Shown: positions 1-9,344 of the stretch, in pieces
How positions within the stretch are numbered: position 1 is the first letter of the stretch
Layout of the letters: each line of letters begins with the position of its first letter
From: Ignavibacteriales bacterium
Lineage (GTDB): Bacteria > Bacteroidota > Ignavibacteria > UBA10030 > UBA6906
NCBI GenBank assembly: GCA_037441705.1
Contig: JBBIRR010000032.1
Coordinates: 1 to 48,951 of the forward strand
Reading direction: 5' to 3'
Length of the DNA: 48,951 bases
Position numbers and translations under genes: made by a program
Notes under the pieces: model-generated
Databases searched by the model: none
Told to the model about the DNA's origin: nothing
What the model saw: the letters and a program-made list of their open reading frames with translations, nothing else

Positions 1-90
1 GGGCATCATCGCGAAGGGAAACAAACGGATCCACGCTAGAGGCGGAGGTGTGAAGCCACGGATACCAAGCAATCGTTCAACGCTAGCTTA

Positions 91-750
91 TCAACGCAAA
101 TTGTGAGAGAAAAAAAAACAGCGAAATCGAATGGGGCAGGTGTTGCAGAGGGGTCTTCGAGGCTTGCAAATGATAGACGCAAAATCAAGAAGAGCTAAGT
201 TTGCATCTCTAGGTTTCTTGCATTGGCTGTAGGCTTTGGAAAGACCAATGATTACCTTATCACGGCGCCCTTCGTTCCCTGTCTTCAAGTCAAAAAACCG
301 TTTGAAAAGCCTGACCACATTCGCATCAACGATCCACTCCTTCTTTCTAAAGGCAATGGACAGCACCGCGCCTGCAATGTAGTCACCGACACCTGGCAAC
401 AAAAGCAACTGCCTCCTCGTTCGTGGGACCCCGCCACTAAATTCGCGCATGAGCTCACGTGCCAGCAATCTGAACTTTGGCACGCGCCATCTTAAGCCAA
501 GTGGCATAAGTATCTTACGCACCGTAGCCGGGTTAGCCTTAGCGAGATGAGAAGGTTTCTTGAACTCTCGGAAGAAGTTTCTATAGACGTGCTCCACCTG
601 ATCAGCTTTCGTTCTCTGTAGCATCATTTCGGCAATGAGAACTTTCCATGGATCATGAGTTCGTCGCCACGGATAATCTCGTTTATTGGCTCTGAACCAC
701 CTTAAGAGTCGGCGGCGGACAAAACCAATCTTCGTCCGATCAACGATCAT
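91..750 (-). CDS. HhH-GPD base-excision glycosylase with FeS cluster (MutY/Mig-like, probable T:G or A:G mismatch glycosylase)
   Basis: PWR..DPWKVLIAEMMLQRT N-terminus, HhH motif LLLLPGVGDYIA, catalytic VDANVVR and C-terminal C-x6-C-x2-C-x5-C (CKPRRPLCNTCPIRFRC). Only 219 aa, so no MutY NUDIX-like C-domain. Overlaps the methyltransferase stop. Confidence 0.9.
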   Translation of the reverse strand: MIVDRTKIGFVRRRLLRWFRANKRDYPWRRTHDPWKVLIAEMMLQRTKADQVEHVYRNFFREFKKPSHLAKANPATVRKILMPLGLRWRVPKFRLLARELMREFSGGVPRTRRQLLLLPGVGDYIAGAVLSIAFRKKEWIVDANVVRLFKRFFDLKTGNEGRRDKVIIGLSKAYSQCKKPRDANLALLDFASIICKPRRPLCNTCPIRFRCFFFSHNLR

Positions 751-2125
751 ATATTTTCCTTAATTCAGAAAGCAGAACCTTGGCTACGGCGCGAGCCATT
801 CGTGGTGGCACAGCATTTCCTACCTGCTTGAATTGTTCTGTCCTCGGTCCTTCAAACAAAAAGTTATCCGGAAAAGACTGGCAGCGAGCTGCTTCCCTCA
901 CCGTAAATGATCGACACTGGTGAATGTCCGGGTGGATATAGTAATGACCGTCCTTAGCTATATGCGCCATCAGTGTGCTACTCGGTCTTGTCCACCACTG
1001 CACTTTGAATCTATCAATGAACTTGTCTAAGTGCTCATGGTCAGGTGTTAGCTCTGGCCTATCCCGCAGTAGGTCAGCCAATGTGGCGCGTTTGTCACCA
1101 TTCAGGTGATGCTCAATAAAAAACCTGTATCGATCAAGATCACTTTGCATATGGATCCGCGCACGATGGTTACAGACCCCTGCTGAATTCTTTCGCATCT
1201 GGGCTTGATAAGGTTTTACACCTTTGCTTGCAGGATATGGTCCAAACCATCGGTCACTGCCTTCCCCCGGCCTTAACTCAGGAAGATCACTAATGGCATC
1301 GTCAACATGCAGTTCAATGGATTGTTCTTGGTCTTTCAAGGCACGAAAAACATTCCTGACGGTTTGACTTTTCTTTGTCAGGGCTTTCCTGTAGCCAATT
1401 AGGAGAATGCGACGCCTTCGCTGTGGCACCAAGAACTTGGAGCTATCTAGGAGATAACCATGGGGGTTTGTACGGAATTCATCATAACTTGGGGCTACCT
1501 CATAAGCAGGGTGAATGGACGCAAAGTCTTTTAACATCCTCCCAAAAATATCCTTTCCTCCGGATACTGCACTGAGCAATCCTGGGACGTTTTCGAGCAC
1601 AAAAAAATCTGGCTGAAAACCTTCTAGAACGTCGAGATAGTATCTGTACAAGAAATGTCGATCATCGTTCTGCATGCGGTTGGGGTCTCGTGATCGGCCA
1701 ACGAGAGAATATGCCTGGCAGGGAGGACCGCCAAGCAGGATGTGTATTCGCTTAACACCTTGAGTCTTTAGCGCGATTCTTACGGAGGAAATGATCTGAC
1801 TGTACGGGTCCTTGCCGAATTCCCTTTGCACTACCTTGCACTCCATTTTATCCGATATATCTGAGAATGTCGTCCTGATGTCCTCACGTGAGACCTGCCC
1901 TCGTACGTAACGATGATACCAGGAGACCTTTTGCTTATTGGTAAGCGCATAAAACATTATCCTTGTGCGTAGACTTTCACAGGCCCATCGGTCTCGTTCA
2001 AGATAGGCTACCACATTAAAACCGGCGTTGGTGAATCCCTCACTCAGGCCGCCGCATCCGGCGAAAAGATCTACTGCTGTAAATCGATCATTCTCGCTGC
2101 TATCCCAAACGGCCATGATTTTCAA
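740..2125 (-). CDS. DNA (cytosine-5) methyltransferase
   Basis: Motif I DLFAGCGG, IV GGPPCQ, VI ENVPGL, VIII QRRRRI, IX RSFTVREAARCQSFP, X QVGNAVPP. Confidence 0.97.
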   Translation of the reverse strand: MKIMAVWDSSENDRFTAVDLFAGCGGLSEGFTNAGFNVVAYLERDRWACESLRTRIMFYALTNKQKVSWYHRYVRGQVSREDIRTTFSDISDKMECKVVQREFGKDPYSQIISSVRIALKTQGVKRIHILLGGPPCQAYSLVGRSRDPNRMQNDDRHFLYRYYLDVLEGFQPDFFVLENVPGLLSAVSGGKDIFGRMLKDFASIHPAYEVAPSYDEFRTNPHGYLLDSSKFLVPQRRRRILLIGYRKALTKKSQTVRNVFRALKDQEQSIELHVDDAISDLPELRPGEGSDRWFGPYPASKGVKPYQAQMRKNSAGVCNHRARIHMQSDLDRYRFFIEHHLNGDKRATLADLLRDRPELTPDHEHLDKFIDRFKVQWWTRPSSTLMAHIAKDGHYYIHPDIHQCRSFTVREAARCQSFPDNFLFEGPRTEQFKQVGNAVPPRMARAVAKVLLSELRKIYDR

Positions 2126-2134
2126 TTCTGTATA

Positions 2135-2845
2135 TTATCTGATCCATGGTTGGAATTCTTCGGGCAACAATGCGATGATTGCATCTGGAGTCATGGAATG
2201 AACATCGTAAGTCAGTTCTAACTGCTCAGCTACCTTCCGCAAACGCCTGAGGGTTCCTGCCCTGTTGCGATCTGTAGCTCCGCGCTTTGGTCTTTGAGCC
2301 TTTTCGTCCCAGTAGAGCTTATGAGCAACCTGAACCAGGGGAACACTGCTGATGAACCATTGGCGTGAGGCAATTTGCTCGATGAAGTCACTCAGCTCGT
2401 ATGGTACTCCCCACAGGAACAGTTTCGAATTCTGCTCCCCGAGCGATGAATAGATGTCATAGTTTGCAAGGATGTAATGGCGGTAATAATCGCGCCAATC
2501 GGTGCTGCAGATATATCTCGCAGTCTCATTCACTTTTCTCTTCCCATCTACTAGCGGGCAAATCGTGTCGAACCAGATGCATGCAAGCCAGGTCCACATT
2601 CCGTGATGCTCTACAACATCTCTCCTGCTCAGCCCGGCCCGTTCAAACACGCTGGATAGGTATCTCGCCATTTCGACTCTGCTTCTAAACTGTCGAGTCT
2701 CGTCTATTTCCACAGGGGTGAAAAACGGCCTTGAATCCTCAGCCGAATCCAACCTTATGGGCGGCAAATCAGGATGTTGTTTTACGGAAAGAATGTAATC
2801 TCTGTAGCGACGTATTCCTTGATCCGTAAGTTCCCTTAGTATCAT
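2135..2845 (-). CDS. Hypothetical protein (236 aa) in the methyltransferase operon
   Basis: Long ORF, 4-bp overlap with upstream gene, 9-bp gap to the methyltransferase; no motif recognised. Confidence 0.8.
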   Translation of the reverse strand: MILRELTDQGIRRYRDYILSVKQHPDLPPIRLDSAEDSRPFFTPVEIDETRQFRSRVEMARYLSSVFERAGLSRRDVVEHHGMWTWLACIWFDTICPLVDGKRKVNETARYICSTDWRDYYRHYILANYDIYSSLGEQNSKLFLWGVPYELSDFIEQIASRQWFISSVPLVQVAHKLYWDEKAQRPKRGATDRNRAGTLRRLRKVAEQLELTYDVHSMTPDAIIALLPEEFQPWIR

Positions 2846-3639
2846 GATTGCCTCTCTTCACCTTCGAGTTTTGAGATTAATTGAGGCCATTCTCTTCGCG
2901 AGGAACAGAATTCCTCAACGACGCTATTAATCCATTTTTCAACTTCCTCCTCATCAAAGTTTTCTTCGTCACGTGGGTCAAGAACGCGCGGTGGTGCGCA
3001 GCCGGAAAGGATCATCCTTGCAAACTGCAACCACTCGGCATGCCAGTCGGCTTCGGGGTCATCCACATCACTGATGCCATCAACGAAGACCATATGCGCC
3101 AACACTTCCCTGATTACCGCCGGATAGACAAAGAACAGGAAAAGAGGGTCTGACTTTGCAAAACTCTGGATATTCGGTAAGCTTCTAGTGACGTAGAGTA
3201 CTGGCGCTCCTCCATCTCCCGTATATTCAACCTTCCAGATCTGCTGCCCCAGATCGCGACTGAAATCCACAGGCAGGATTGGTTTTCTTTCTCCCTCTGG
3301 AATCGGACTTATCCGGTCTGCCTGAGCAAGAACCAGCCCGTACGTACCTCGTTCATCCACAACCAGCAGTCGAAACTTGAGATTCTCAGTGCGCGCAAGG
3401 TCTACAAGACTAGTGTCATGAGGGGTACTTTTTGCCCCGACAGTCCCGAAAGAATACCGCCTCTGATCGGTTCGATGATAAGCCTCAAAGTAGACTCTCG
3501 CATCGTTGGGAAGTTGAAACTCTGACAGGTCGAACGTTGCCGTGAACGATCTGGCAGCCCCATTTTTTCTGTTGAGAAGGACAGTGATCTTTCGACGTTG
3601 AATTTTTTGCCTACCCGTGAAGTTAAGACTGCGTTTCAT
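2842..3639 (-). CDS. Hypothetical protein (265 aa)
   Basis: ATG preceded by GGAGG on the - strand, overlaps both neighbours; no motif recognised. Confidence 0.8.
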   Translation of the reverse strand: MKRSLNFTGRQKIQRRKITVLLNRKNGAARSFTATFDLSEFQLPNDARVYFEAYHRTDQRRYSFGTVGAKSTPHDTSLVDLARTENLKFRLLVVDERGTYGLVLAQADRISPIPEGERKPILPVDFSRDLGQQIWKVEYTGDGGAPVLYVTRSLPNIQSFAKSDPLFLFFVYPAVIREVLAHMVFVDGISDVDDPEADWHAEWLQFARMILSGCAPPRVLDPRDEENFDEEEVEKWINSVVEEFCSSRREWPQLISKLEGEERQS

Positions 3640-5452
3640 AGGCTACCTCCCTTACATGAACTACCAGGTCGCGTTTCGTATCAAATCCTCTAATCTCCAG
3701 AGAGAAGTCCGAATTCGTCACCTCAAATTCAACTATGTTGCGCGTTGCACTTGATATGCTGCACCCTGAGTTTGCAATTCGTATTGCTCCAGTTGAAAGA
3801 TCAAAATCACTTGGCTCATACTGCTTGAACGGGTTGCCTCTTCGGACATCGTAAGCCAGTTTCAATACCCCTTTCGCCGGTAATTCCTTTTCTCTTCTTG
3901 CCAAGTTCAGTCTTACTCCATCTTCCAGTCTTGTTATCCTGAAAACTGTAGGACGTCGCTCAATCGGCGGTATATCTGTCTCCTTCGCACTTTCCTCTTC
4001 TTCTGGAACGTCAACTGGTCGAATTATGTAGAAAATATCTTTAAGGAAGTCTTTCTGCCTTTCCTTTGGGGGTAAATCCAGCAGGTTAACGAGATTCTCC
4101 ACGCTTTTCTTTATGAATCTCAGCAACGGAACGGCATTGGAGTACTTTTCCTTGAAGCCCTCGGTTTTGTCGTTCCATTGCGTGTGCGCGGGGGTTTCAC
4201 AATCACCCAAGAAAGCGTTAATGGCACTATCTTGAGCTATGAATAACGCTCGAACAGGTCTACTCTTAGGAGTTGACGCATCAACCACCGTAATGCCTGA
4301 CCTCACGTAATATTCCTGTGATTTTTTCAATGTCCCATCTCTCTGCAGGTAAACGTAAAAAAACGACCTCTCTCTTCCCCTTCCGACCTTTTCGACGTAC
4401 ACAGGCACCCTAAAAGCAACGAGTTCCCCGGACTGAAAATCTTCCCTCGATTGATTTATACTGTCGCCAAAAGAAGATTCGTCGATCACTAGACTCTCAG
4501 CACAGGATTCGGGTAACTCCACCCATTCATTTGTTGCGATACATTTCTGAATGAAGTTCAGAAAAACCCGCACATTTGTGTGTTTCCAGTCTGTTCCTTC
4601 CCAGTCCTCTTCTTCAGCGCATTGAATAAGATTGTCCGACTGCAATTGCACGGTTCCATCCTCGTCCTCAATTTCGATTTCGAGCTGGCCGGTCATGATA
4701 GCGTAAAAGTAATGGTAAATCGCGGAGCGAACCACAGAGCTTCTGTCTATTTCCCCATGAGGCATAGGAATGATGAGGGAGAAACCCGGTTCATTGCCGC
4801 GGCTAAGCCTGAAGGTCCTGGTGATTTTTGATATTCTCTCAGCATCTTCAATTGGCCTGAATCGATCGTCAACATAATAAGCATAGTAATGGTATGTCCT
4901 ATCGTTAAGTCGGTGACATTTCAGAAGTGCTTTACCCATCAGCAGCTTTCGTCCATCGTCATGTCTTACGGTTAGTCCCCAGAAAGCACGCAGGTTCGAC
5001 GCCATGTGGAAGGTCGTCTTTCCCAGTCCCCATCGGCCAGCTTCCTGGCCTTTTTTCGATGATTTCCCCTCACACCACCAGAAGTTATAAAAATTCTGCC
5101 TGTTGGTAGGCCTCAAATCCTCTCCTGTTTGTCCATCCAGTCCTGTTGTTCCGAAATCCTCGATGGCCATGTATGGCACTGAGTTGCGGTTGTTGTACTC
5201 ATCGTCCCGTATCCCACAAGCTCTTATGTGCTTCTTGAATTCCTCTCCAAGTAGCGTGTCCAAGATTCTCCCGTCGACTTCACGCAAGATGAATCGAACC
5301 CTGACCTTGTTGCTATCTCTGCGCTTGGCGTCAAGCGAATTCTGTATGAACTCGCGAACTATTGCCTCCGTAGCATTAGTTAGACGGAAGAATTCGGCCT
5401 CGTGAGGATCTCTTTCAGGTTCGCCCTGCCTGAGTTCAGTGAACTTCCACAT
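3623..5452 (-). CDS. GHKL (Bergerat fold; MutL/MORC/Hsp90-like) ATPase-domain protein with unknown C-terminal region
   Basis: N-box VREFIQNSLDA, G1 IEDFGTTGLDG, G2 SSKKGQEAGRWGLGK. Acidic linker (PEEEESAKETD) before a predicted beta-rich C-terminus. Confidence 0.75.
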   Translation of the reverse strand: MWKFTELRQGEPERDPHEAEFFRLTNATEAIVREFIQNSLDAKRRDSNKVRVRFILREVDGRILDTLLGEEFKKHIRACGIRDDEYNNRNSVPYMAIEDFGTTGLDGQTGEDLRPTNRQNFYNFWWCEGKSSKKGQEAGRWGLGKTTFHMASNLRAFWGLTVRHDDGRKLLMGKALLKCHRLNDRTYHYYAYYVDDRFRPIEDAERISKITRTFRLSRGNEPGFSLIIPMPHGEIDRSSVVRSAIYHYFYAIMTGQLEIEIEDEDGTVQLQSDNLIQCAEEEDWEGTDWKHTNVRVFLNFIQKCIATNEWVELPESCAESLVIDESSFGDSINQSREDFQSGELVAFRVPVYVEKVGRGRERSFFYVYLQRDGTLKKSQEYYVRSGITVVDASTPKSRPVRALFIAQDSAINAFLGDCETPAHTQWNDKTEGFKEKYSNAVPLLRFIKKSVENLVNLLDLPPKERQKDFLKDIFYIIRPVDVPEEEESAKETDIPPIERRPTVFRITRLEDGVRLNLARREKELPAKGVLKLAYDVRRGNPFKQYEPSDFDLSTGAIRIANSGCSISSATRNIVEFEVTNSDFSLEIRGFDTKRDLVVHVREVAYETQS

Positions 5453-5462
5453 GCGACCACCT

Positions 5463-5738
5463 CTAGTTTTCTTGGATTATTTCTTCTGCGATTTCACCGA
5501 GCAGCCAATCTTTGTTGGCGTCATCTTGTTCCTCAAAGCACTGCTGGTATCGTCGCAACAACTCCTCACGCGACATTTTCCTGAGACGTTTTCTGTACTC
5601 GTCGGCAACAATTTGCATCACAATCATCTTGAGGTCACCGTGATCACCACAATACTCTTCAATCAAATCATCGACAGCCCAAGGATTGCCGATCTCTATA
5701 GACCCTCTAATTTCTTTCTCAAGAGCGGCAACATTCAT
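5463..5738 (-). CDS. Small acidic helical hypothetical protein (91 aa)
   Basis: AAGGAG RBS before ATG; fills the gap between vapC and the GHKL gene. Confidence 0.6.
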   Translation of the reverse strand: MNVAALEKEIRGSIEIGNPWAVDDLIEEYCGDHGDLKMIVMQIVADEYRKRLRKMSREELLRRYQQCFEEQDDANKDWLLGEIAEEIIQEN

Positions 5739-5766: not shown

Positions 5767-6180
5767 CTATTCTGTTTCCCCCAACCACACAATCTTCTTC
5801 AGCTCTCGTGCGAGCGGTTTGAAGTCCCTGTCGCCGGTTACCAACACGGCTTTCATCTGCTTTGTCAGTGCGGCGCAAAAAGAGTCCACAAGCGAAATGC
5901 GATGGTCGGCTTTGAGCCGCGCAGCGAGTTCGGCAAGATCGCGGTCGATCTCCTTCACGGCAAGCGGAGTTTCGCGCTCGAATTGTCTTGCCGCCTTCAC
6001 ACCCTCTTCTCCCTGAATGCGTTGAACACAATGGAGAACCTCTGCCCAGTTCACTGCAGAGATGTAAACTTCCCGCTGTTGGTCGGCAGCGTGAGCAAGA
6101 ATCTGCTCGACCTGTCCGGCGGCGGGTTCATCAAACAGCAGCGCAAGCACTGCCGAGCTATCGAAGACCGTATTTGCCAA
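5767..6180 (-). CDS. vapC: PIN-domain toxin (VapC family)
   Basis: VFDSSAVLA, ISAVNWAEV, SLVDSFCAA and VLVTGDRDF carry the PIN acidic residues. Confidence 0.92.
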   Translation of the reverse strand: MANTVFDSSAVLALLFDEPAAGQVEQILAHAADQQREVYISAVNWAEVLHCVQRIQGEEGVKAARQFERETPLAVKEIDRDLAELAARLKADHRISLVDSFCAALTKQMKAVLVTGDRDFKPLARELKKIVWLGETE

Positions 6181-6439
6181 GTTTTTCCTCTTCTTTCTTC
6201 ACGTCTTCCCTGCGGCTCTCCAGTAACTGCTGCGTTGCCGGTTTCATGCCGGGTTTCAGTTTCAGAATGCCCCTGAATTTTCTCACGGACTCACCCGTGA
6301 TCGGCTTCAGGACAATTTCAAACTTCTCCTCATCAACCTCAAGTTTGAACCTCGTTCCTTCCTGGATGCCGAATTTCTTTCGGATGGATGCGGGGATAAC
6401 GATCTGACCTTTTGTCCTTGCGATGGTTTCCATTTTCAA
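6158..6439 (-). CDS. AbrB/MazE/SpoVT-family antitoxin (start may be ATG at 6433)
   Basis: TKGQIVIPASIRKKFGI swapped-hairpin motif; overlaps the vapC start. Confidence 0.9.
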   Translation of the reverse strand: MKMETIARTKGQIVIPASIRKKFGIQEGTRFKLEVDEEKFEIVLKPITGESVRKFRGILKLKPGMKPATQQLLESRREDVKKEEEKLGKYGLR

Positions 6440-6723: not shown

Positions 6724-6982
6724 CATTCAACCCCTTTGGGGTTGGCTATCCCCGTGTCTGTTCTATTTCCGTCCGTCTCCTCACGGACGGTTATTCATGT
6801 TCAATCCCTTCGGGATTGACAGGATTGTTCGTCGAGCCTGACATGTTCAATCCCTTCGGGATTGGCCGGATTGCTTGTCACCATCGAGAGGGTTCAATGT
6901 GAGGATGGCAGTCTCACGTTCTGCTCTGATCCCTCGCTTTCATGGCGGGCCGTTAATCCTGTTCAATCCCTTCGGGATTGAC
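6724..6982 (-). repeat. REP-like hairpins, left group (4 copies)
   Basis: CAACCCCTTTGGGGTTG at 6728. GTTCAATCCCTTCGGGATTG at ~6799, 6845 and 6961. GTTATTCATGTT at 6790 is the reverse complement of the linker in the right group. Confidence 0.85.
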
Positions 6983-7011
6983 AGGATGGTTGGTCGATCA
7001 GGAAGGAGTCA

Positions 7012-7344
7012 ATTGTGCGAAGCACGGAGTCGACACAAGTAGCAACGCAAGCGTCAACCCCGAGGGGTTCAACATGAATAACTGCAGGGAGTCCAGAAGA
7101 AGACACCCAACACACCCATCAAACCCCGAAGGCGCATAACATGACTGACTGCGCGAAGCGCGGAGTCGATACCGGTAGCAACGCAAGCGTCAACCCCGAA
7201 GGGGCATAACATGAATGACTGGGCGAAGCATACAGCCGATCCCGGTGTGATCGTCAACCCCGAAGGGGTTCAACATGAATAACTGCACGAAGTGCAGAAG
7301 AAGACACCCAACACACTCAACAAACCCCGAAGGGGTTTAATATC
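7012..7344 (+). repeat. REP-like tandem array, right group (5 copies, ~64-69 bp period)
   Basis: Consensus AACCCCGAAGGGGTTCAACATGAATAAC at ~7053, 7120, 7189, 7253 and 7321. A second GAA-loop hairpin (e.g. CTGCACGAAGTGCAG) lies between copies. Confidence 0.9.
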
Positions 7345-7791
7345 ATGAGCACCTACACACAAATCCTATATCAAATCGTCTTCGGCACGAAGTATCACGA
7401 AAAGACACTCGTTGCAAGCGGGCGCGATGATCTCTTTCGTTACATCAGCGGCATACTAAAGAACAAGAAGTGTCACCTTTACAGGATCAACGGCGTGGAA
7501 GACCATCTCCACATCATAACGCATCTTCATCCATCAGTTGCACTTGCAGATCTCATCAAAGATATCAAGCTTGCTTCTACCGACTACATCAAGAAGAACC
7601 ACATCTTCCCCCGCTTCAGAGGCTGGCAAGACGGCTATGGAGCCTTTACATACTCCATCGAAGCCAAAGACCGATTGATCGAGTACGTGAAGAATCAACA
7701 AGAACACCATCGGGTGAAAACGTACAGAGAGGAGGTTGTAGAACTCCTGAAGGAGCACGGGATTGAGTATGATGAACAGTATTTGCTGTAG
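7345..7791 (+). mobile_element. tnpA: Y1 HUH transposase (IS200/IS605 TnpA, REP-associated RAYT-like)
   Basis: YQIVFGTK, HUH motif EDHLHI, WQDGYGAFTYS and catalytic Tyr in YVKNQ; no tnpB; adjacent hairpin repeats. Confidence 0.92.
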
Positions 7792-7841
7792 GCTCTGAGC
7801 TGTTTATTCAACTCGATTGCAAGCAGGGTCGGTAGATCTAT

Positions 7842-7878
7842 GCAGGATTATACTCACAAGTTTGTTTATCTTTGACCG
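7842..7878 (+). repeat. Right copy of the 37-bp direct repeat; may include a -10-like TATCTT for the downstream YciI gene
   Basis: GCAGGATTATACTCACAAGTTTGTTTATCTTTGACCG versus 6681-6717. Confidence 0.75.
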
Positions 7879-7918
7879 TCGTTCTCATCTCTTCGAAAGA
7901 CAATCGCGAGAGGAATTC

Positions 7919-8281
7919 ATGAAATACCTCTGCCTCATCTACCTCGACGAAAAACTCTTAGAGGCGATGCCCGCCGAGCAGTACAACGGCGTCGTGCGTC
8001 AGTGTCTTGAGTACGAAAAAGAGGTAGCGAAGAAAGGAGGGCTGCTCGCCGTTGAGGCTCTCGAGCCGACGCAGACAGCAACCACCGTACGTGTGCGCAG
8101 CGGCAAACGCACCGTCACCGACGGACCCTTTGCCGAAACGAAGGAGCAATTAGCGGGATTCTTCCTCATTGACGCCCCCGACCTCAACGGCGCCATCACC
8201 ATAGCCGAAGGAATGCCTCAGGCTCAAATCGGCAGTATCGAAATCCGACCGATCAAAGACCTGACGAAGCATCTAAAATAA
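7919..8281 (+). CDS. YciI/DGPF-family protein
   Basis: MKYLCLIY start after GAGG, VTDGPFAETKEQLAGFF. Confidence 0.92.
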   Translation: MKYLCLIYLDEKLLEAMPAEQYNGVVRQCLEYEKEVAKKGGLLAVEALEPTQTATTVRVRSGKRTVTDGPFAETKEQLAGFFLIDAPDLNGAITIAEGMPQAQIGSIEIRPIKDLTKHLK

Positions 8282-8294
8282 TTTTGAAACTCCC

Positions 8295-8323
8295 TGTCGA
8301 TTTTCCTCTCCCCAATTCGACTA
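8295..8323 (+). promoter_or_regulatory. Putative ECF42-type sigma promoter
   Basis: TGTCGA-N17-CGACTA upstream of a DGPF gene; same motif and spacing at 14323. Confidence 0.6.
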
Positions 8324-8375
8324 AGGAGTGAAGAGATCAGATCAGATTTTCCAGGCAAAACCAAAGAGAAAAGTT

Positions 8376-8810
8376 ATGCGATTCGTCATGTTTATGATTC
8401 CCGCCGTTTATCAAGGTGAACAAGGAAAGAAGGTCAGCCCCGACTTTGCTCCACCGGCTGATGGCGTCGAACGGATGATGAAGTACAACGAAGAATTAGC
8501 AAAAGCCGGTGCACTGGTTGCGTTAGATGGACTTCACCCACCCTCAATGGGTGCGCGGGTTACGTTCAAAGGAGGGAAGGCAACCGTAACCGACGGACCA
8601 TTTACCGAAGCGAAGGAGGTCGTGGGGGGCTACTGGATGATCAATGTGAAGTCGAAGGAAGAGGCGATCGAATGGGCGCGGCGCGTTCCGGCCGACGAAG
8701 GAGATGTGATCGAAGTGCGGCAGGTGTTTGAGGTGGAGGAATTCCCACCCGATGTGCAGAAAGCGGCTCAGAATCCGACGGTGGAAGCGGCGATTCAGAA
8801 AAAATCATAA
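8376..8810 (+). CDS. YciI/DGPF-family protein
   Basis: MRFVMFMIP start, TVTDGPFTEAKEVVGGYW. Confidence 0.92.
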   Translation: MRFVMFMIPAVYQGEQGKKVSPDFAPPADGVERMMKYNEELAKAGALVALDGLHPPSMGARVTFKGGKATVTDGPFTEAKEVVGGYWMINVKSKEEAIEWARRVPADEGDVIEVRQVFEVEEFPPDVQKAAQNPTVEAAIQKKS

Positions 8811-8942
8811 TAGACCTTCGAAATCGAGACTTCGGAAAATTCAAGAACTGGATACATCTCGCAAAGAAGACTACTTACTCAAGAATCAAACCTTGCTGCT
8901 CTTTGCGCCTTTGCGAGGAATAATACGCAAGAGGAACCGACC

Positions 8943-9344
8943 TTGAAATACATCTGCCTCTGCTACATGGATGAAACACAATGGGCGGCAATGACCGAAG
9001 AGGAACGGAACAAGCTCATGGACGAAGCCTTTGTCTATGATGAGGAACTCAAGAGAACCGGCCACTTGATCGGTGGTGAAGCTTTGCAGTTGTCCCAGAA
9101 CCCCGTAACGCTCCGCTATCACCATGGCAAGGTTTCGGTTACCGACGGGCCGTTCGTTGAGACGAAAGAACACTTAGGAGGCATCCTGTTGCTCGAAGCC
9201 CGCGATCTCAATCATGCCATTCAGCTCATGTCGAACCATCCTTCGCTTCGGATGGGAAGTATCAGGGAAATTCGTCCCGCAGCGGATTTGACGGAGATGA
9301 TTGCGGAAAGTGAGAAACGACGATTCGGAGCAAACCACTCATAA
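8943..9344 (+). CDS. YciI/DGPF-family protein (TTG start)
   Basis: KYICLCY...VTDGPFVETKEHLGG; GAGG RBS. Confidence 0.9.
   Translation: MKYICLCYMDETQWAAMTEEERNKLMDEAFVYDEELKRTGHLIGGEALQLSQNPVTLRYHHGKVSVTDGPFVETKEHLGGILLLEARDLNHAIQLMSNHPSLRMGSIREIRPAADLTEMIAESEKRRFGANHS

Follow-up and report, generated by a model that had tools for sequence, protein, structure and literature searches.

A contig of 48,951 nucleotides from an Ignavibacteriales bacterium (JBBIRR010000032.1 of GenBank assembly GCA_037441705.1; hereafter, the window) encodes a compact cassette that couples a GHKL ATPase and two partner proteins (genes A, B, and C) to a C5 cytosine DNA methyltransferase (M) and a mismatch glycosylase (G). 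Judged from its genes, this may be a mobile, self-contained, methylation-linked defence or addiction cassette whose A-B-C core is a sister of the phage defence candidate PDC-M33, a reading to which we give an even chance. A restriction-like form of defence is probable because the acquired cassette joins a PDC-M33-related module, consisting of an ATPase plus two partners, to a methylase and a repair glycosylase.

All three core families (A, B, and C) have many members in both bacteria and archaea, none of them functionally named in the source listings examined; moreover, B and C have confident predicted folds without a solved neighbour. The cassette in the window is the most compact form found, with the triad hard-wired to one methylase and one repair enzyme and with no other nuclease in sight. 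It therefore offers a clean construct for asking whether GHKL/paraMORC modules read C5 methylation, which component inflicts the damage, and what role PDC-M33 plays.

Organization and base composition of the cassette

All five genes lie on the minus strand in the order A-B-C-M-G. According to the open reading frame (ORF) list, A (3623..5452) encodes a 609-aa GHKL (Bergerat-fold) ATPase, B (2842..3639) a 265-aa protein modelled as a beta-sandwich (N-terminal) plus a helical domain (C-terminal), and C (2135..2845) a 236-aa, mostly alpha-helical protein that is probably a distant DUF6339/PDC-M33C relative. These are followed by M (740..2125; ORF list and PF00145), encoding a 461-aa C5 cytosine DNA methyltransferase, and by G (91..750), encoding a 219-aa Mig-type iron-sulphur (FeS) HhH-GPD glycosylase, Mig being a thymine glycosylase for G-T mismatches. 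Coupling between the genes is tight: A and B overlap by 17 nt, B and C by 4 nt, and M and G by 11 nt, and a gap of 9 nt separates C from M.

An earlier note, made from the DNA letters and ORFs of the window, had described five co-oriented, tightly coupled genes in a block that looked AT-richer by eye. The arrangement stands, with all five ORFs on the minus strand at these positions, and the visual impression is borne out quantitatively. The guanine-plus-cytosine (GC) content of the cassette is 0.479 versus 0.540 in the remainder of the window, and none of 153 equal-length segments elsewhere has a GC content as low. Likewise, GC at third codon positions (GC3) is 0.47-0.53 in the cassette versus 0.69-0.73 in the genes for NrdJ, DnaJ, HrcA, and FadD. 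Because both measures fall below those of the rest of the window, the cassette looks horizontally acquired.

The GHKL ATPase

The Bergerat-fold motifs that had been quoted for A are present, and they occupy columns that are invariant across 118 aligned homologues (E34/N38/D41, E98-D99..G104..G107, and G139-R-W-G-x-G-K145). With these ATP motifs intact, A is predicted to be ATPase-competent. Further along the same alignment, E419/H423 (an ExxxH motif), D549, and D595 are invariant, and D535 and D591 are nearly so.

The sole library match of A was to the PADLOC profile PDC-M33A (3.6e-30; A residues 20-264 against profile positions 24-270 of 627). No Pfam family was found, and the only NCBIfam row lay below its cut-off (0.036; 14.5 bits versus 50 bits). 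When the A family was compared by hhalign with six plasmid PDC-M33A proteins, the relationship extended over residues 3-462 with the ExxxH motifs aligned (99.9%, E 4.5e-31). The C-terminal region of A (~460-609) falls outside this alignment and constitutes a clade-specific domain. Single-sequence and profile searches of PDB sequences gave no usable match to A, and in the ESM Atlas A matched unnamed look-alike clusters only.

Homologues of A are abundant, with 1006 proteins at E<=0.001 among 8000 candidates scored. Among the 120 matches listed, nearly all are ~600 aa long, every name given by the source is "hypothetical protein", and the organisms include Thermoproteota, Methanosarcina, Archaeoglobales, Syntrophomonadaceae, WOR-3, and Cloacimonetes. 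One homologue, P0025, is 1013 aa long, with Pfam TPR repeats in the N-terminal ~390 residues.

The partner proteins B and C

Neither B nor C has a family match in Pfam, NCBIfam, PADLOC, or PHROGs. For B, 92 homologues were found, with no detectable relative outside its own family. Its AlphaFold2 model (predicted local distance difference test score [pLDDT] 91.1, predicted template-modelling score [pTM] 0.65) shows a beta-sandwich followed by a helical domain. B is equivalent to PDC-M33B by position and size only.

For C, a word-indexed search recovered 36 homologues, and a C profile run exhaustively against a library clustered at 50% recovered 1836 representatives at E<=0.001, 712 of them at <=1e-30. 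The AlphaFold2 model of C is mostly helical (pLDDT 94.9, pTM 0.89). Within the family, D214 and E230 are invariant, and H123, D153, E156, and K187 are nearly invariant. In an hhalign comparison of extended profiles, the C family (with the C protein of the Rhizobium locus L002, described below) aligned colinearly with DUF6339-type PDC-M33C (with that of L010, also below) at a probability of 64%, with E 6.7e-5 in local and 2e-5 in global mode, versus E 0.03-0.43 for four cross-controls. Searches with hidden Markov models placed the same relationship at E 0.005-0.55. C is thus probably a distant DUF6339/PDC-M33C homologue.

The earlier note had raised the possibility that one of the two proteins is a cryptic nuclease, an idea that gained nothing here: both folds are predicted with confidence, and neither model has a PDB neighbour at E<=0.001 in Foldseek. 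The top Foldseek matches of the two models were generic beta-sandwiches and kinase or nuclear-receptor helices with template-modelling scores of 0.1-0.25, and sequence searches of the PDB with B and C returned nothing usable.

Some members of the C family are fused to additional segments. In P0301 and P0310, a long linker is followed by a zinc ribbon (PF13240, 1.9e-7 and 7.9e-8), while P0382 and P0390 carry ~300 and ~130 extra residues, respectively. A guess that the P0382 and P0390 tails form a DNA-binding barrel was dropped as unsupported, with no Pfam or PDB sequence match. The homologue P0220 had no usable named match in the ESM Atlas.

The methylase and the glycosylase

M had been called a complete C5 methyltransferase, and it is one: it matches PF00145 at 8.3e-50 and TIGR00675 above the cut-off, and its translation contains FAGCGG, PPCQ, ENV, QRRRR, and GNAVPP. 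Its best PADLOC profile is DrmMII PDLC02649 (1.5e-134). In a tblastn search of plasmids, relatives of M were seen at 37-38% identity only, among 25 of 50 records listed.

The assignment of G as an FeS HhH-GPD glycosylase is likewise upheld by Pfam matches to HhH-GPD and HHH above their cut-offs and by a C-terminal Cx6Cx2Cx5C pattern, although the FeS-loop family itself (PF10576) remains below its cut-off (16.4 versus 20.5 bits). The best PDB sequence match is 1kea, a "Possible G-T mismatches repair enzyme" of 221 aa, which aligns with G residues 10-214 at E 1.3e-42, ahead of the structures of MutY and endonuclease III. The MutY and Nth models of NCBIfam also fall below their cut-offs, and, at 219 aa, G has no MutY C-terminal domain. 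PADLOC assigns G to its REase_II profile, "Type II nicking endonuclease" (1.2e-44). From these comparisons, G is identified as a Mig-type G-T mismatch glycosylase, and a methylase with an overlapping deamination-repair gene is the usual arrangement.

Recurrence of the cassette and of its core

A search of genome contigs, which used a single-sequence query, returned one locus, L001, on the contig of a Nitrososphaeria archaeon. Order and tight spacing of the five genes are both preserved here, at identities of 44% (A), 55% (B), 51% (C), 55% (M), and 49% (G). Because the five-gene order is shared with an archaeon, the arrangement is more than chance. In L001, a short ORF with an HSLRHSF-type motif (4392-4544) lies ~260 nt upstream of A, and its translation reads as a possible tyrosine-recombinase remnant; a radical-SAM gene and a metallophosphoesterase/RNase H-like gene are located further upstream.

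A more divergent triad was found on a Rhizobium plasmid (L002). Its A is 26% identical over 97% of the length, and its B and C are recovered by hhalign at 97% (5.3e-11) and 99.4% (1.7e-21), respectively. Located 2.6 kb downstream of this triad is a C5 methylase that belongs to another subtype and is 29% identical to M over 164 columns. In the region 10447-12613 of L002, an SPFH/Band 7 gene (8.2e-22) is found between the triad and this methylase, and the opposite strand has an ORF with a sub-cut-off ART-PolyVal match (2.6e-6; 28.7 versus 31.2 bits); the record is unannotated and of high GC, with many spurious ORFs. When C was used in tblastn against plasmids, Rhizobium alone was found.

Contig sizes provide indirect evidence for linkage of the three genes in other genomes. 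At least 27 of 91 B matches lie on contigs equal in size to that of a listed A match, suggesting a shared contig, and by the same measure at least 13 of 35 C matches share a contig with an A or B match. These counts are lower bounds, as 120 A matches were listed and many contigs are short. The comparisons indicate that A, B, and C are a conserved module.

PDC-M33-type triads were collected by plasmid tblastn with A and an Arthrobacter A homologue, which yielded 20 distinct records. Eight of these were examined, one per genus, leaving out one more from Priestia, six from Ligilactobacillus, and five from Lactococcus; one scaffold from a phage collection (L010) was added. Seven plasmid loci and the scaffold carry a PDC-M33-type triad, whose proteins measure 628-667 aa (A), 235-295 aa (B), and 252-276 aa (C). 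In the annotation of the records, A of L006 is split and C of L005 is truncated, and both were left out of the alignments. In the Arthrobacter triad, A matches PDC-M33A at 3.5e-82, B matches PDC-M33B at 6.4e-30, and C, which is Pfam DUF6339 (3.9e-34), matches PDC-M33C at 1e-31. In four of the eight PDC-M33-type loci, a small gene of 62-76 aa lies immediately upstream of A (L004 5699-5926, L005 5812-6000, L006 5744-5974, and L007 5641-5871). The copies are 39-57% identical (BLAST E 3e-13 to 1e-24), and this gene may be a fourth PDC-M33 component.

Association with C5 methylases

The earlier note had proposed to test whether the three-gene core is conserved next to C5 methylases. The A-B-C module does recur, and a C5 methylase is found within 5 kb of the triad in eight of 11 loci (the window, L001, L002, L004, L005, L006, L007, and L010). 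In three of the 11 (the window, L001, and L010), triad and methylase share one tightly packed operon. L010 (MT837792.1, an unverified "phage" scaffold) is organized at 296-5715 as a single operon of A-B-C-HNH_2-C5 methylase, where C matches DUF6339 (1.5e-39), the nuclease matches HNH_2 (4.1e-11), and the methylase is 340 aa long (4.5e-53). Because the methylases differ in subtype, as seen from the 29% identity of the L002 enzyme and the 340-aa length of that in L010, the association appears to be repeated and independent and not the inheritance of a single block. In four of these loci (the window, L001, L004, and L006), the methylase has a Mig or Vsr gene beside it.

Proposed function and alternatives

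If the cassette is a restriction-like system, M would methylate a specific cytosine motif on host DNA. On binding ATP, A would dimerise in the manner of MutL, MORC, and topoisomerase VI-B and, together with B and C, clamp or loop DNA; B would serve as an adaptor and C as a DNA-contacting or effector subunit, so that the A-B-C complex would act on DNA lacking the mark of M. G would remove T from the T:G mismatches left by deamination of 5-methylcytosine, offsetting the mutagenic cost of M as Vsr and Mig do. Candidates for a cutting activity are the C-terminal domain of A (D535, D549, D591, and D595) and the conserved polar residues of C. Mobility and a defence context are supported by the neighbours of the cassette in the window, a PIN/AbrB-MazE pair and an IS200-type transposase, and in L001 by the possible tyrosine-recombinase remnant. 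Also in favour of this reading are the tight gene coupling, the five-gene order shared by a bacterium and an archaeon, the low GC and GC3, the intact ATP motifs of A and its homology to PDC-M33A, the company that B and C keep with A, the recurrent C5 methylases, the L010 operon, and the published contexts of the paraMORC and PDC families.

A number of observations weigh against this reading. Library and PDB searches of A, B, and C turned up neither a nuclease or helicase nor a known DNA-binding domain; as had been noted at the outset, PD-(D/E)XK, HNH, Z1, AIPR, and helicase families are absent from all three in Pfam, NCBIfam, PADLOC, and PHROGs. B compares with PDC-M33B profiles in hhalign at E 0.11-0.15, no better than the cross-controls. 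Window-type loci were inspected at a sample size of three, and the figure of eight in 11 is a raw count, uncorrected for how often C5 methylases lie around random plasmid loci. The adjacent C5 methylase has its own annotated nuclease in L004, L005, and L007 and lies on the opposite strand in L005 and L007. The neighbourhood may therefore reflect mere clustering in defence islands. No C5 methylase is present in L003 (with an AIPR gene adjoining), L008 (AbiG), or L009, whose triad lies among N6 methylases and type I/MmeI-type genes. Since PDC-M33-type triads occur without a methylase or beside nuclease-equipped ones, the core needs no dedicated methylase, and to that extent the earlier interpretation was overstated. 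Because the DNA 3' of G lies beyond the window, and in L001 beyond the contig end, further components are possible. Finally, the function is a prediction from the genes, and PDC-M33 too is a candidate.

Some of these same points favour a possible, though doubtful, explanation in which A-B-C works as a defence of its own, independent of methylation (through abortive infection or recognition of a phage product, for example), and merely shares an operon with an ordinary orphan methylase-glycosylase pair. Three of eight M33-type loci (L003, L008, and L009) have the core without a C5 methylase, in three others the methylase has a nuclease of its own, and no nuclease was found in the cassette. The PDC candidates, moreover, as described in the available part of their source, are defined by embedding in other systems and not by a methylase partner. 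However, the five genes of the window overlap or lie 9 bp apart, a bacterium and an archaeon share their exact order at ~50% identity, and L010 independently joins an M33-type triad, an HNH nuclease, and a C5 methylase in one operon. A role in repair is improbable. MutL stimulates Vsr in E. coli, and by analogy A-B-C could be a MutL-like accessory that aids G, or Vsr elsewhere, at T:G mismatches of methylated cytosines. A belongs, as a GHKL ATPase, to the MutL/MORC radiation, and Mig or Vsr sits beside the methylase in the window and in L001, L004, and L006; in the accessible text of their article, Iyer et al. draw a parallel with MutL in mismatch and very-short-patch repair (Iyer et al., 2008; PMC2292703). 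Such an accessory is hard to reconcile with a sporadic, horizontally transferred distribution and a foreign base composition, with M33-type triads that adjoin AbiG, AIPR, Shedu, or type I/MmeI genes without any C5 methylase or repair gene, and with L010, in which the triad is partnered by an HNH nuclease and a repair gene is lacking.

Very improbable is the idea that G is itself the DNA-damaging effector, steered by A-B-C to unmethylated sites. PabI restriction glycosylases, which are unrelated to G, do damage DNA, PADLOC files the G family under "Type II nicking endonuclease", and no other nuclease is visible in the cassette. Yet G aligns end to end with the Mig-type repair glycosylase 1kea (E 1.3e-42), a methylase with an overlapping repair gene is a standard arrangement (with Vsr in L004 and L006), and M33-type triads appear to function without such a glycosylase (L003, L008, L009, and L010). 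In a further, unlikely scheme, no nuclease is needed: A-B-C would be a prokaryotic MORC-like machine that senses the absence of C5 methylation. By ATP-driven clamping or compaction, an equally unlikely proposal, it would block replication or expression of unmarked DNA, and with no greater likelihood B and C would represent two new folds for DNA reading and assembly. If true, this would amount to a methylation-guided, non-cutting immunity common to bacteria and archaea and would provide an ancestor-like mechanistic model for eukaryotic MORC silencing.

Flanking DNA

An acidic 91-aa ORF (5463..5738, minus strand; ORF list) lies 10 bp upstream of A. Its GC content of 0.446 is cassette-like, versus 0.556 for the neighbouring PIN gene. 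No significant family was found for it in Pfam, NCBIfam, PADLOC, or PHROGs, two sub-cut-off Pfam rows (E 0.03 and 0.067) being the nearest matches, and L001 has no counterpart upstream of A. It shows no similarity to the small conserved gene that precedes A in L004-L007, and a relationship between the two was rejected; membership of this ORF in the cassette is uncertain. At the other end, a weak terminator-like hairpin (30..46, minus strand; five pairs, three of them G-C, and a T-rich tail) lies 45 nt 3' of G. As a consensus match, it is a possible operon end for the cassette, in a scan that found 11 such sites versus 7.3 expected.

The cassette is immediately preceded, on its own strand, by a PIN-domain gene (5767..6180; PF01850, 7e-20), which overlaps an AbrB/MazE-type antitoxin gene (6158..6439, minus strand; PF04014, 7.7e-11). 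Together, these form a VapBC-like pair (5767-6439, minus strand), upstream of which lies the best promoter-like site of the region (6494-6466; 11/12 matches). At 6768-7343 and 7345-7791, an IS200-type Y1 transposase gene (PF01797, 2.9e-21) adjoins a gene-poor repeat stretch. The repeats comprise several families of 38-85-nt direct and inverted repeats with the hairpin core CCCTTCGGG / CCCGAAGGG, and the combination looks like repetitive extragenic palindromic (REP)-type elements beside their own transposase. Next come three tandem paralogous YCII-domain genes on the plus strand (7817-9344; PF03795, 1.7e-23 to 7.9e-19). The window also encodes type IX secretion system (T9SS) sorting domains, NrdJ, HrcA, and DnaJ; the T9SS domains suggest a bacterial host from the Bacteroidota-related (FCB) group.

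Relation to known systems

The closest relative of the core is PDC-M33, a phage defence candidate of PADLOC-DB v2 whose C component is Pfam DUF6339. PDC systems are 145 candidates derived from "guilt-by-embedding" in BREX, DISARM, and type I restriction-modification systems, according to the portion available of a preprint (Payne et al.). PDC-M33 and the core of the cassette each consist of three co-oriented, adjacent, overlapping genes of similar sizes (A ~610-670 aa, B ~260-295 aa, and C ~235-275 aa) in the order A-B-C, found in defence or mobile contexts. Because A is clearly and C probably homologous, the window triad is taken to be a divergent sister clade of PDC-M33. The two differ in that B and C of the cassette have no PADLOC match to PDC-M33B or C at E<=0.1, with no profile similarity for B, and in that the last ~150 residues of A do not align with PDC-M33A. 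The small gene of ~75 aa upstream of A in L004-L007 is missing from the window clade. In the window, the triad shares its operon with both the C5 methylase and the Mig glycosylase, and no recognisable nuclease is present. Neither "PDC-M33" nor "DUF6339" was mentioned in the literature searched.

A also fits the description of paraMORC2, as judged against the published account and not against reference sequences. In the accessible text of that study, paraMORC families are tied to C5 methylases, Vsr, and nucleases, and paraMORC2 is defined as a GHKL plus S5 protein with a conserved ExxxH that occurs in restriction-modification contexts (Iyer et al., 2008; PMC2292703). Cassette A shares the N-terminal GHKL domain with intact ATP motifs and the downstream ExxxH, as well as a sporadic distribution in bacteria and archaea and neighbours for C5 methylation and short-patch repair. 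E419-x3-H423 is invariant and aligned with the PDC-M33A motif; the likeness to paraMORC2 is one of description. The same text stresses helicase and nuclease partners, whereas none were found in the cassette. It contains no B or C proteins and no Mig glycosylase partner, with the word "glycosylase" appearing 0 times in the main text. The portions available of the paraMORC literature searched hold no description of this cassette, and searches for GHKL together with restriction-modification, cytosine methyltransferase, or defence returned a Tiamat preprint and unrelated work only.

The layout had been judged not to be that of Mza, DISARM class 2, or Druantia, and this judgement is sound: the DrmMII and DruM matches concern the methylase alone. 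What these systems and Tiamat have in common with the cassette is a multigene defence locus with a GHKL-type ATPase, a C5 methylase, or both. PADLOC v2 presumably contains models for all four. Their other components had no PADLOC match in A, B, C, or the 91-aa ORF at E<=0.1, and no Z1, AIPR, helicase, DUF1998, PLD, or PD-(D/E)xK family was found in the cassette with Pfam, PADLOC, or NCBIfam. DISARM class 2 comprises the DrmA helicase, DrmB (DUF1998), and DrmC together with DrmMII, whereas the cassette has a DrmMII-like M only, in sequence that extends to window position 1. Mza combines a MutL-like ATPase with Z1 and AIPR proteins, for which the cassette has no Pfam or PADLOC match. In Tiamat, as described in the part of the source available, the GHKL ATPase is fused to a C-terminal PD-(D/E)xK domain (DUF3883/NOV_C), and cassette A has no such match in Pfam or PADLOC.

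As for classical type II restriction-modification, no nuclease family was detected beside the methylase in A, B, C, or the 91-aa ORF with the four libraries. The closest parallels for M and G are Dcm-Vsr and pairs of a methylase with a Mig-type glycosylase: the reading frames of M and G share 11 nt, G resembles 1kea over its full length, and Vsr follows dcm in L004 and L006. Such a pair comes with an ordinary type II endonuclease or with no partner at all, whereas in the cassette three extra coupled genes precede the pair. In PADLOC, A matches PDC-M33A only and B and C match nothing, and the earlier description of the system as undescribed went too far, given the homology of A to the ATPase of a three-gene PADLOC candidate and the probable homology of C to DUF6339/PDC-M33C. 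The cassette is, rather than wholly undescribed, a divergent, methylase-fused variant of a candidate system of the paraMORC kind.

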